Source of the DNA: Lophium mytilinum | Lineage: Eukaryota | Length of the DNA stretch: 64,000 nt | NCBI GenBank assembly: GCA_010093605.1 | Contig: MU004185.1 | Location: forward strand, 1,385,334 to 1,449,333 | Reading direction: 5' to 3' | Shown here: one piece after another, positions 32,069 through 38,102 of the stretch | Position numbering within the stretch: position 1 is the first letter of the stretch | Layout of the letters: each line of letters opens with the position of its first letter | Program-made: the position numbers and the translations under genes | The notes under the pieces: generated by a model | Told to the model about the DNA's origin: nothing | The model's database searches: none | What the model saw: the letters and a program-made list of their open reading frames with translations, nothing else

Positions 32069-32530
32069 GGTGTGAGAAGAGGTGGTCGGTTCGAGGTTAT
32101 CCAACCGGTGGTGGTGTGTGTATGGAGAGCGAAGCTGTAAGGCAGCATGATTGCGGCAGGCGGCTCTTAGGGTATTCAACGCTCCATATTCACCAGCCTG
32201 CGATAATTACGTTTTGAAGATGGCGATAGCAAAGGCCGTACGGGCGAACTGTAGATATAAGCGGCGTGTATTTGTAGGGGCGATGTGAGGGAACATCAAT
32301 GTGCGAGATGTAAGGTGGGAGGTCATGTACCCCAATGACGCCGGAGCCAGATCCCTGCATTTCTAATCTTGGCAAAACGCGGACCTCCACCCTCACCTCC
32401 GTGCCTTAGGCCCCCACACCCCCACCACCTAACCACAACTGAGGTCAAGGTCACGCTTCTGAGAGCATGGAAACATGACTTGATCATTCACTCACCCACA
32501 GCAACTGACACTGCTCCTCACAGCCCTCTC

Positions 32531-33322
32531 ATGGACCTTCCCTCATCCGGACTTTCTGATCCTCCATCATCGCCTGCATCCTGTGGCCAACCAGCGATTC
32601 TAAACATCGTCACTGATCGCAAAAGGTCCTTCGCCGAAATGGTTGATACTCGCCAGTCCAAGAACGGACGAGCTAGAGAGCCCATCCCTACACGAAGGGA
32701 AGAGCGCTCACAGAGCCCAACACTTACCGCGAAGGGCGAAGGGCGATCGTCTCCAGACTCGCAAACTACTCAGCGCCAGATTCTTTCGGACGAAAACGAT
32801 GCTCCAGAGCTGAATGGAGCAGAAGCAACAGAGCCCGTCGACCCGGCTGAGAAGATTGAGGACTTCGACTGGGGTAATCTCGAAGAACGGTACCATGACG
32901 CTATGGACAAGAACATTGATGTCGAGCAACGACTCACGGAAGAATGGGACGACCTTATGAATGTAATCAGCTCTACCCTTGTTTAGCATCTTCTTTCGAT
33001 ATTGATCTTGGTCCACAGTTCTTCAGCATATGGCAAGAAGCCAGCAAGCACCACGAGGTCGATCGCTCGTTCAGACGGTAAAGCCCTTGATCAACGCTGT
33101 GTATAAGAATGCAAGTACTGATATACTATGCAGCCTTCGGACGCGGACGGCTCACGTGCAAAACTCGGAAGAGAACCTCGAGAAAACGAGGGTTCATTGT
33201 AAGTGACGCTTTGCCACGGCTAGACAACTGGTATCTCTCCATGAGCATAGACTAATCACTTCGCAGACATTCAAGTCGTCAGGGCTTTCGAGAGTGCGTT
33301 AGACCTGCTGAACACGCGCTGA
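32531..33322 (+). CDS. Hypothetical fungal protein with C-terminal coiled coil
   Basis: Three canonical introns splice EDFDWGNLEERY...LMN/FFSIWQEAS...FRR/LRTRTAHVQNSEENLEKTRVH/YIQVVRAFESALDLLNTR* into one frame. Confidence 0.72.
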
Positions 33323-33944: not shown

Positions 33945-35316
33945 TCATAGCAGAGGGTTAGATCGGTACTCTGGCACAACCCCATTCGTCTGGGACTTCT
34001 CGGCTTGGTTCTCGGCGTCGAGTCCGTTCTCAACGGCCGGTTCTTGATCCATGAGCCACTTTTCGGCCTCGAGGGCTGCCACACATCCAGAGCCTGCCAC
34101 TAGTTAGCTTTTGTGTACTGCAGATGAGAACTCGAGATCTACTGACCTGCACTCGTGATGGCCTGTCTGTACCGCTTATCTTGTACGTCTCCGGCGGCGA
34201 ACACGCCCTCGACGCTAGTTAGACCTCTACCGGCCTGTGTGATGAGATAGCCATCCTCGTCCATGTCAAGCTGCCCCTTGAAGAGTGTGGTTGCTGGGTC
34301 GTGTCCCACAGCGTAGAACAGACCCCTTGCTTCGATTTCTTGCTCCTCTCCAGTGACGTTGTTCTTGATAACAAGAGATGACATGAGCCCATTCTTTTTC
34401 TCCTCGCCCTTTATAAGCACACCGCTATGGTTGAACTTGACCTCAACCTTCGGGTGCGTCGTCAGACGGCGCGCGTTTGTCCTGCTGGCCCGTAGTTTGT
34501 CCCTCCGTACCAGGACTGTAACCTTCTTGGCCTTCTTCGTCAGATACAATGCCTCTTCAACGGCTGAGTCGCCTCCACCAATGACAACCAAAGACTGATC
34601 TCTGAACATGGGCAGCGAGCCATCGCAAACAGCGCATGCTGAAACACCATTGCCCCAGTACTGGGTTTCTCCGGGCAAATCAAGCCTTCGAGCCTTTGCG
34701 CCTGTGGCGATTATCACCGAGTCCGCGGTGTGCTCCTCCGGTTCGATCTCCTCATCGTCTCCCATGGGGTGTAGCCAGTATTTGAAAGGGCGGGTCTTTA
34801 GGTCGATTTTCGCGACAGTCTGGGATACGATCTCGGTGCCGCATTCTTCGGATTGTTCGCGCATTTGGTCCTACATCGCGAGGTCTATTAGCCGGTTTCC
34901 TTATAATCTTGTAAGGGAAAAATAGGGCTTACCATCAATTTACCGCCCTGGATCTTCTTGAAGCCGGGGTAGTTCTCGACTTCGTCCGTGGTGGTCAATT
35001 GTCCGCCGGCAGCGATTCCGAGCGCGAGGAAGCCTTCGTATAGGACCGCTATTCCAAGATTAGCCAATATCCACACGGCCACGAGGGATCAAAGTACACA
35101 CGATTCAGATCAGCCCGAGCGGCATAAATGGCGGCTGTATGGCCAGCTGGGCCGGAGCTGTAGTCTGTCTGTCAGCATGTGTTGCCAGACAAGAGGTGTC
35201 GCGTGTGTGGGGAGCAACAACGCGTTTGACGTACCCAATGACTGCCGGTTCTGTTAGCAATGGGCTTTCTAGCGGCAAGACTGGAGGCGAAACTTACTGA
35301 CAACTTTCGAATGCAT
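33945..35316 (-). CDS. TRR1: Thioredoxin reductase (low-MW, fungal/bacterial type)
   Basis: [20 protein letters not shown] (assembled via a 7-nt micro-exon), [16 protein letters not shown], active site [33 protein letters not shown], ends YRSNPLL*. Confidence 0.96.
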
Positions 35317-35559
35317 ATTCCGGGAGCCTCTGGCGACTGTAGATAGAGGTTTAGGAAGTTGAGGGAGCCCCGCGGCAGCCGAGTTTCGCTGCTGGAACGA
35401 TGCGGCTGCTGCGATCGGGATTGCAAGGGAAGATAATATGGGAGAGGCACTGGCTCTGCGAAGAGTTGAGGCGAACAGGATGGCGGCTGGCGAGGTGGGT
35501 TGCTTTGTTGTACTTATTCACTCGGGCACGAGGGGTGTTGTCCGAGGCTGTCGAAGATC

Positions 35560-35565
35560 TTTATA
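35560..35565 (-). promoter_or_regulatory. Candidate TATA box of thioredoxin reductase
   Basis: TATAAA on the minus strand about 80 nt upstream of the proposed CUG start, with a CCAAT/ATTGG at 35569-35573. Confidence 0.4.
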
Positions 35566-36335
35566 GAGCCAATAGTGGGGGAATCCTCTAGAAGTTCGAT
35601 GTGCAGTGACAATTACTCTGGCGCAAGGTGTAGGGTATGGCGTGGATTTGTGAGGGCAGGGAGTGACAGATGATGAAGTAGATCGTGGTGAGTTGCAAGA
35701 CAAATGTAAATTTGGTTGCGATATCGCCATCGATGCCGATGGCCGTCTAGCCCTCCCGCCCTGCTTACGAACCGCGACTTCGAGACCTTTGGGGATTTAT
35801 CACGCCCGAAACCCCACCGACAGAGCCTGTCCCACCTCTATTTGTCCATGCTATTCTGGACCCTTCGTCCGGTGCGTGATTCAGGAGCCGAGCCGAAATA
35901 CTACCTCCTACATACAAATATGCGCCTCGGAACTTCAGCCGACCAGGATACAAAGAGTACTAACACTGGCGGGCCTGGAAACAGTGCATTGTCATCAATA
36001 CTTACCCCTTGTGACCATGTTCTATTCGCTCTCTTAGTGCTTTAATCAATGTGCGATAACTGGATGATGCGAGGTCGTTAAACCGTTCATACGGTAAACT
36101 TAAGGCCATCTGAGACATCAGAACGGCGCATACAAACTGGACGTGTGACCTGTCGCTCCAGATCGGTGTCGCTCCTTCGAGGTCTACAAGCAGCAGAAAG
36201 GGAGTATATGCAGATACATAACAAGGCACTATCACGACGTCATAGGACTTCGCATGTATAAGCGGGATGCGCGATTCCGAATCAACGTCTCAGCCCTGTT
36301 AGGCCTGTGTACAGCAGATCCACTATGATATACCA

Positions 36336-38102
36336 CTAGTCCTCCGCACCCGCTCGCTTTCTCAAGTTCTCAATACCGTAAAAGATGTCCTGCAACGCAG
36401 CTTGTTTCCCAGGATTCTCCGCATTGGCCACTTCCACCTCTCTTCCAAGCAGACCATCGCCTTGTGCCTGGTCATTGAGCTGTTCGAGTATTACGTCTAG
36501 TATGGATGTAATACTATATCCACCACTTGAACCTGGCGAAAATGCTTGTATCCGATGTGGAACGTCCTATGGCAGTTATTAATTATGATCATGGAGAGAC
36601 GGGTGAAGTGGCTAGCCACTCACTTCTTTCTGACGCAGCATTGTGGTAGATCCGGGCTCACGTGTATGGTCGATAGACACTATGATGACCTCCGTGCTCT
36701 GGCCAGATTCCAAGAGCGTCAGGTCCAGAGGATTTCCAACTAATGGGAGAGTCTGCTGCAGACTAGAGACCTTCTTTTCGCTATCAATCTTGAAAAGAAA
36801 CAAGGCTGGTACCCCTTCACAGGTCACAAGCACGCTATCCTAGCCTAGGCTTAGCGATCGGTATGGACTAAAGCAGTATGAGAGATATTACCCTTGAGGA
36901 TGAAGACGGAATCGCCCAGATACCTGAAACAGCAACTTTAAGGTCTCCTTCACTCTCCTGTGGCGGTCTAGCATGCTGGGGATGTGCTTTGAAGAAATCC
37001 AGCACTGGCTGCTTGATACTGATCTTTTCCAGCATACGACTGTTCAGCCAATCCCAGACAATGAGATCATCATCTCCACCACCGGATATGAGGTCTCCAG
37101 AACCTGTCAGACAGAGCTTGCTGACGAACTCCCGGTGGCCTTGACAAAAGCCTTCAATGATATGAGACTGGGGGGGTCCTCGCGATATGCGAATATGTTC
37201 GTCACGATCGGCAGTAAAGATATAGGTACGGGGCTTTGCTTCTGCCTTTTCTCCTGCGATTTCAGCGTACAAAATGTCAGTAAGCATTGACACATGCCCC
37301 AAAAGGAGGTCATGTTTGAACTTGAGAGGCCCCTTCGTCTTAGGCTGAAGTTTCTGCTTAAGTTGGTCCTCGAGAGCTTTTCGATTTCGTCCCGAGTGGA
37401 CTGTAAGTGGGGTCGCCGTGGGAACGAAAGACGCTGATGTTTCCTTCTTCTCCTGCGCGGCCACGAAAATGTCGTCGGCATCTGTGGGAGACGGTACGAG
37501 TGGGAGGGCGTAGACATCTCCGAACTTGTCTGCACAAAGAATAGTCGCGTCGTTTTCAATTAGTGTCACCGCGCAGGGCCGCTTTGGCATAGGCCTTGAA
37601 CAGTGTTAATTATACAATCGTCAAATGCAAGACACGTGTCTCACCTTTCACTTAAGGGTTCCAGTCGACCGGTCAGGTCGAGGCGAAATACACGAAGACA
37701 TTTGTCTTCTGCAGTGACGGCAACGAGATGCTGATAATCGCTGGTGACCACTAACTTGGACACATTGGGAGGTTCTTCTGCCTGTTTCGATAGCTTCACC
37801 TTCTTCCCGGGTGGTTCTTGCGGCTCGTCTGCGTGCACAGGCTCCTAACAATGCTTAGCTCTCACTCGTTATACGTGACAGTCTTCTGCCTGAAAGAATC
37901 AGATCAACGTTTCATCAAATCCCCCAATTCAAGGGTTTTCACTCACTACAGGCTCTGATATCTTCTGTGACGACCAAACGGATGTAGCGCCGCTGGAATG
38001 GCAGGAGTAAATTCTCGGGCCACTTGCAGCAAGCAGTACCCACGAGCTGTGATCCTGCGGGTCTGGTCTACAAGCCTGGACACACTGGAAAGGAACTGCC
38101 AT
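36336..38102 (-). CDS. TRM82: tRNA m7G46 methyltransferase WD40 subunit
   Basis: MAVPFQC...VTAEDKCLRVF...MPKRPC...CADKFGDVYALPL...LLGHVSMLTD...TADRDEHIRISR...SGGGDD...YGIENLRKR. Several introns. Confidence 0.92.

Follow-up and report, generated by a model that had tools for sequence, protein, structure and literature searches.

The Thioredoxin Reductase Gene and Its Upstream Open Frame

The stretch of DNA analysed here, referred to as the window, comprises 64,000 nucleotides (nt) of Lophium mytilinum (contig MU004185.1, positions 1,385,334 to 1,449,333) and contains, on its minus strand, a gene for thioredoxin reductase (TrxR) preceded by an open leader. The coding sequence (CDS) is annotated from the AUG at 35316 (35314..35316; this and all other features of the gene are on the minus strand), which has the context ggaatATGc with A at -3 and is the proposed start of the cytosolic enzyme. 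The same frame continues upstream to a CTG (35476..35478), which is proposed as a near-cognate start codon from its homology with CTG or GTG in related loci. The 54 codons that begin at this CTG (35317..35478) would encode an N-terminal extension of the enzyme, which its open frame, coding signature and composition mark as a putative mitochondrial presequence.

Joining of the six exons gave a protein that agreed letter for letter with P0002, a 356-residue sequence that its source names thioredoxin reductase of L. mytilinum (Dothideomycetes) and starts at AUG 35316. Exons were delimited from spliced RNA contigs and the joined CDS. Exon 1 of the annotated CDS (35298..35316) encodes MHSKVV plus one base and is followed by a 7-nt micro-exon, TCATTGG (35235..35241), the letters of which are held between both joints in RNA contigs X1 and X4. 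The remainder of the CDS is made up of exon 3 (35102..35157), exon 4 (34933..35048, with its boundary set to give a GT..AG intron), exon 5 (34147..34870), the motifs of which place in it the CAVC redox centre and the domain for nicotinamide adenine dinucleotide phosphate (NADPH), and exon 6 (33945..34093), which includes the stop codon. All five introns are absent from X1, an RNA-derived contig identical to the window. The protein matched TIGR01292, the family of low-molecular-weight thioredoxin-disulfide reductases, scoring 368.5 bits over residues 4-321 (curated cutoff, 343.45). It holds the CAVC redox-active disulfide, the GxGxxG/A motifs for binding of flavin adenine dinucleotide and NADPH, and the sequence GVFAAGDV. 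Definitions of the CAVC and GxGxxG/A motifs were taken from PMC6416177. The micro-exon is flanked by introns of 56 and 77 nt, and the same “..VIG..” piece is found between introns in the genomic loci of relatives.

An earlier note on this DNA had described, upstream of the AUG, 67 open codons without an AUG in any frame, a CTG in strong context, an acid-free peptide of 54 residues and a TATAAA about 80 nt farther up. Each of these descriptions agreed with the sequence. The 67 open codons lie between the ATG at 35316 and an in-frame TGA (35518..35520), 13 codons before the CTG, at which the frame ends, and the region from 35730 to 35316 is ATG-free in all frames. The sequence around the CTG at 35478 is gccgccATC-CTG-t, in which position -3 is A and an in-frame ATC lies immediately upstream at 35481; the eight positions before it (-8 to -1, 35479..35486), delimited as the conserved initiation context in an alignment of 12 sequences, read CCGCCATC. 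Translation from CTG to AUG gives a Ser/Ala-rich peptide of 54 residues with no Asp or Glu, five Arg, 12 Ala, nine Ser and a net charge of +6, in which the C-terminal end, ...GSRN, places an Arg two residues before the native Met. The TATAAA (35560..35565), a candidate promoter element, is 87 nt upstream of the CTG, and TTATAAAA, which is similar to it, stands at a comparable distance in L020, one of the related loci described below.

In the frame of the extension lies a further stop-to-stop stretch of 92 codons (35518-35796, minus strand), bounded downstream by the TGA at 35520; the nearest upstream ATG (35730) falls within it. This stretch has no counterpart in relatives and is probably a product of chance.

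Conservation of the Start Codon and Its Context in Related Loci

Related loci were obtained by a scan of metagenome contigs, which gave 44 stretches that fitted the pattern, 23 of them verified as loci (L001-L023). The pattern used to fetch them required Arg at -2. L015 is cut, and the 22 usable loci comprise 15 distinct extension sequences from about 11 species-level groups. The 15 versions analysed hereafter are 14 of these distinct sequences and that of the window; the L010 group, 99.7% identical to L001, was omitted.

The frame upstream of the ATG was open in all 23 loci. Among the 22 usable loci, the codon homologous to CTG 35478 was CTG in 11, GTG in 11 and ATG in none, with A at -3 throughout. 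From this near-cognate codon to the main ATG, every frame was ATG-free in 22 of 22. Conservation of the open frame and of the CUG context among orthologues had been put forward in the earlier note as a check, with stops or frameshifts in the leaders of relatives as the contrary result: the conservation was observed, and no stop or frameshift interrupted the frame from the near-cognate codon to the main ATG.

The shared context is CCGCCA-N-N-(C/G)TG-TT. In the alignment of 12 sequences, C at -7, G at -6, C at -4, A at -3, the TG of the codon itself and TT at +4/+5 were invariant (12 of 12), C at -8 and C at -5 were conserved in at least 90%, and the 20 nt before the context were unconserved. 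Amino-acid conservation starts exactly at the near-cognate codon, with the motif (L/V)F-x-x-x-F-R-R-A, and the peptides upstream of it are unrelated. The distance from the start to the nearest upstream in-frame stop is 3 codons in L006, 6 in both L005 and L007 and 13 in the window, with a maximum of 76 in the other loci; given these stops, a start further upstream is impossible in L005, L006, L007 and the window. The nearest upstream ATG in any frame was observed 212-409 nt from the start codon in the window and the 14 loci where one is seen. The lack of any AUG over more than 200 nt suggests that the leaders are long, longer than the position of the TATAAA would imply, and are kept without AUG.

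Five extended proteins that begin with Met (P0103, P0129, P0131, P0132 and P0163) were considered as instances of an ATG start in other lineages, a reading that was rejected. All are Logan gene calls and, given that the JGI call P0127 from the same 90% cluster has Val at this position, the Met at this position is most likely the caller's convention for GTG. Met was likewise printed in an alignment for reference sequences with an initial GTG.

Farther upstream, the promoters of the window and L020 share two short blocks, AATTGTCAC and CTTC-N-AGAG-N-ATTCC (∼35585-35625 in the window, minus strand; ∼110-140 nt upstream of the CTG), and the rest of the promoter is unalignable. We take these blocks to resemble AP-1 (Yap1-type) and heat-shock/Skn7-type elements; such elements would accord with a function of the gene in oxidative stress.

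Coding Signature of the Extension

Frame 0 was open in all 15 versions; stops were present in the +1 frame of 12 and in the +2 frame of nine. All length differences among the versions preserve the frame. An excess of synonymous change in frame 0 was observed in six of seven pairs (p = 2.6e-5 to 0.005); the 12 controls with a shifted frame for those six pairs showed no such excess. Between the window and L020, for example, 22 synonymous and 13 non-synonymous differences were counted (ratio of non-synonymous to synonymous differences per site, pN/pS, 0.24; p = 2.6e-5), with the excess present in frame 0 only. In this pair the extension shows 80% identity and no insertions or deletions (indels); identity is 50% over the 160 nt upstream, where indels of 11, 6 and 5 nt occur. 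The ratio of non-synonymous to synonymous substitution rates (dN/dS) was 0.09-0.52 in 14 of 19 pairwise comparisons; three others were saturated at synonymous sites and one had a dN of 0. Variability by codon position was 57/30/90. X3, from a relative, carries insertions of 2, 3, 1 and 1 nt upstream of 35520, the first of which is also present in X4, and none is listed inside the extension. On these comparisons, the extension evolves as a protein-coding sequence under purifying selection, to a degree beyond that expected by chance.

This pattern bears directly on the view that the upstream frame is a 5′ untranslated region, its openness being fortuitous or due to a conserved regulatory element in the RNA or DNA. 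An open frame of 54-67 codons at 58% GC is not very rare when taken alone, and the +1 frame of the same stretch of the window is also stop-free, as that view would allow. It does not account for a synonymous excess that is specific to one frame, nor for a frame that stays open in every version, changes length only by whole codons and keeps blocks of amino acids between fungal classes. A search for conserved RNA structure downstream of the start found none (consensus energy of -1.24 kcal/mol), which also argues against a regulatory RNA element. An untranslated leader is thus considered highly improbable.

The extension itself was also used in database searches. No match was obtained when its open reading frame was compared with longer proteins, no NCBIfam family matched it, and a protein atlas search gave no usable match. 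A phmmer search of 1.84 billion representatives returned one match (E = 9e-4), which was to an unrelated repeat protein and was rejected.

Presence of the Near-cognate Codon on Spliced RNA

Seven contigs from relatives (L001-L007) are spliced, MHSKLVIIGSG... being contiguous in them. All seven hold the start codon together with 30-388 nt of upstream sequence, and that stretch is ATG-free. Comparison by BLAST with the genomic loci of the same organisms showed that the introns are removed and that leader and genome are colinear in L001, L003 and L004, the three that were compared. For the species of the window, the spliced contig X1 runs through the CTG. X4, a spliced contig of 450 nt from a relative of ∼97% identity, extends 179 nt past the CTG in the upstream direction, to 35657.

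These data were also considered with respect to a scheme in which the two isoforms arise mainly from two classes of transcript: a long one that includes the CUG and a short one, with a transcription start site (TSS) between CUG and AUG, that would give the cytosolic enzyme only. Leaky scanning would then be of minor importance. Alternative TSSs are used in some Cryptococcus genes for dual-localised aminoacyl-tRNA synthetases (aaRSs) (PMC7049704), and assembled RNA contigs can neither define 5′ ends nor exclude additional short transcripts. However, the presence of the start codon and upstream sequence in all seven spliced contigs from relatives argues against this scheme, as does the ATG-free stretch from CUG to AUG in all 22 loci, a property that leaky scanning on a single mRNA requires. 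Transcript classes as the main source of the isoforms are therefore regarded as rather improbable.

Presequence-like Features of the Extension

Across the 15 versions, the extension has a length of 42-55 residues, a net charge of +4 to +8 and a combined Ser, Thr, Ala and Leu content of 47-61%. Fourteen versions are without an acidic residue, and L023 has one Glu. Position -2 relative to the native Met is occupied by Arg, encoded by CGA, CGG, AGG or CGC according to lineage. Given that four synonymous codons are used across lineages, this Arg appears to be under selection at the amino-acid level. The fetched loci lend no support to its conservation because the fetching pattern demanded that residue. 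Arg at -2 was present in all four of the extended proteins that were retrieved by the enzyme part alone (P0006, P0069, P0103 and P0109), the N termini of which align with the extension upstream of MHSK. A basic, acid-free extension that is rich in Ser, Thr and Ala and has a putative Arg -2 processing site follows the pattern of a matrix presequence. Such sequence properties are consistent with a role of the extension in mitochondrial targeting.

It is also conceivable that the extension is translated from CUG or GUG and selected, but for another destination (the intermembrane space, the endoplasmic reticulum and secretory pathway, or another organelle) or as a tag for regulation or degradation. 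Neither a coding signature nor a conserved start reveals where a protein goes, and the amphipathicity test of the extension was not significant. In addition, the stretch ...ILSSLAIPIAAAASF, which follows two Arg residues, is moderately hydrophobic and could resemble a signal peptide. A precedent is provided by yeast Gpx3, in which a non-AUG extension of 18 residues leads to the intermembrane space (PMC5368413). Like Gpx3, TrxR is a thiol-redox enzyme with a (here putative) mitochondrial pool that would arise through a non-AUG extension, but the extension described here is longer, at 42-55 residues, and has the composition of a matrix presequence. The absence of acidic residues from 14 of 15 versions, the positive charge, the Ser/Thr/Ala content and the conserved Arg at -2 likewise favour the matrix over other destinations, as does the occurrence in Neurospora crassa of a mitochondrial thioredoxin without a known reductase. 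On balance, a different destination or a tag is unlikely.

Distribution among Fungi and Annotation of the Extension

A profile built from the extensions matched 19 proteins. By source name, extended models occur in Stagonosporopsis vannaccii, Boeremia exigua and Hortaea werneckii (Dothideomycetes) and in Staphylotrichum tortipilum (Sordariales). The same Sordariales-like type is represented by L022, L023 and P0137. Blocks of amino acids in the extension are conserved between the classes. Given its occurrence in both Dothideomycetes and Sordariales, the extension predates the split of Dothideomycetes and Sordariomycetes.

In four models (P0124, P0126, P0128 and P0135), the annotation runs across the open leader and joins TrxR to an upstream gene. 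Most other models begin at the downstream AUG and have 356-360 residues. Thus, the extension is systematically mis-annotated, since models either ignore the open leader or fuse it to upstream genes.

Neighbouring Genes

The upstream neighbour (36868-37605, minus strand) is a co-directional gene with WD-repeat-like sequence, and the downstream neighbour (32339-32986, plus strand) is a convergent gene. An N-terminal segment of P0159 resembles the latter. X1 (4857 nt) spans the TrxR gene and both neighbours, a sign that transcripts may overlap or read through in this compact region.

DISCUSSION

The comparative data can be explained by a model in which one mRNA of a TrxR gene of the single-copy, low-molecular-weight type is translated into two proteins. 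Of the scanning ribosomes, a minority would initiate at the CUG at 35478 in its strong context, CCGCCAUC-CUG-UU (GUG in some lineages), and the product would gain the basic, acid-free, Ser/Ala/Leu-rich extension of 54 residues as a cleavable mitochondrial presequence. The majority would pass the CUG and, with no other AUG on the way in any of the three frames, begin translation at AUG 35316, which has A at -3, to give the cytosolic enzyme. Given that the Arg at -2 from the native Met would place processing there, the mature mitochondrial enzyme would be nearly the same as the cytosolic one. We infer CUG initiation, mitochondrial import, cleavage and the division of isoforms by leaky scanning from conservation and composition. 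The supply of both compartments by one gene in this way was the central proposal of the earlier note; the comparative predictions made from it all turned out as expected, and the gene probably does serve as the source of both cytosolic and mitochondrial TrxR.

Several points weigh against this interpretation. A GFP (green fluorescent protein) fusion of Fusarium graminearum TRR under its native promoter gave uniform fluorescence, which its authors read as cytoplasmic (PMC6416177). This result is mildly against a large mitochondrial pool; a small pool would stay hidden. The base at +4 of the CUG is U and not the preferred G. In the pair of Sordariales-like loci L022 and L023, one synonymous and eight non-synonymous differences were counted in frame 0 (dN/dS of 3.1), and the +1 frame fits better (p = 0.033), although the comparison is limited to nine differences with adjoining indels. 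The hydrophobic moment of the extension was not above that of composition-matched shuffles, of which 62 to 960 of 2000 reached the observed value. Furthermore, X1 says nothing about the 5′ end or the TSS because it merges with both neighbouring genes, and L. mytilinum may have a separate TRR2-like gene.

In Saccharomyces cerevisiae, the single genes ALA1 and GRS1 each give rise to a near-cognate-initiated mitochondrial isoform. Similar isoforms of aaRSs are produced from near-cognate starts in yeasts and Cryptococcus, with the contexts cccaccAUU and gccaccACGAUU (PMC7049704). The TrxR leader resembles those of ALA1, GRS1 and the Cryptococcus ArgRS and LeuRS genes in having an AUG-free in-frame extension, a near-cognate start in strong context and a downstream AUG for the cytosolic form, its presequence being putative. 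It differs from them in its association with a redox flavoenzyme instead of a tRNA synthetase, in its CUG or GUG start and in the retention of the non-AUG state across two classes of Pezizomycotina. In the terms of the “DualNCC” criteria (PMC7049704), an AUG-free in-frame extension, a near-cognate codon conserved in position and coding evolution were all observed, the last with the exception of L022/L023.

Among reductases themselves, S. cerevisiae uses two genes, TRR1 and TRR2, for cytosolic and mitochondrial TrxR (bioRxiv 10.1101/2025.04.24.650474; PMC6416177). The enzyme family and the need for a reductase of mitochondrial thioredoxin are the same; in yeast this need is served by a duplicated gene with its own presequence, whereas here one gene would serve both compartments.

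Yeast GLR1 gives two isoforms from alternative in-frame starts, and both this gene and that for Plasmodium TrxR use two AUGs. The two isoforms of Plasmodium falciparum TrxR also arise from alternative in-frame starts (PMC3009606). The present gene would share with these the use of one disulfide-reductase gene for two compartments through alternative starts, the proposed upstream start being non-AUG. Within Pezizomycotina, N-terminal extensions of N. crassa cpc-1 arise from conserved near-cognate codons and have a dN/dS of 0.285 (PMC5487733). As in TrxR, the position and context of the near-cognate codon are conserved, codon identity is variable and the extension is under purifying selection. 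Unlike TrxR, cpc-1 is a transcription factor, the extension of which bypasses control by upstream open reading frames and has no targeting role. A literature search found no paper that links fungal TrxR to a non-AUG or near-cognate mitochondrial isoform, although supplementary genome-wide lists of N-terminal extensions, such as those of PMC7049704 or of profiling work on Neurospora, could name the gene.

Filamentous fungi have mitochondrial thioredoxin and peroxiredoxin, yet the literature searched gives one TrxR, which is treated as cytosolic. For N. crassa, one thioredoxin reductase (TR) without an N-terminal signal and a mitochondrial TRX3 are described, and the organism “seems to lack a mitochondrial TR” (bioRxiv 10.1101/2025.04.24.650474). 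Our broader proposal, to which we give an even chance, is that in at least two classes of filamentous ascomycetes (Dothideomycetes and Sordariomycetes; possibly most Pezizomycotina, including N. crassa) the mitochondrial TrxR is not “missing.” Instead, a single TrxR gene would have carried a CUG- or GUG-initiated presequence since before the two classes split. Its start would have been kept non-AUG (0 ATG in 22 loci), likely because a weak codon sets a low, possibly stress-tunable, ratio of mitochondrial to cytosolic enzyme, a ratio that neither GFP tagging of the whole protein nor genome annotation would reveal. A single codon in one conserved context offers a precise target for a test. If the proposal is true, a conserved hidden isoform closes the gap left by the “missing” mitochondrial TR and alters the reading of TrxR knock-out phenotypes in fungal pathogens of plants and humans.

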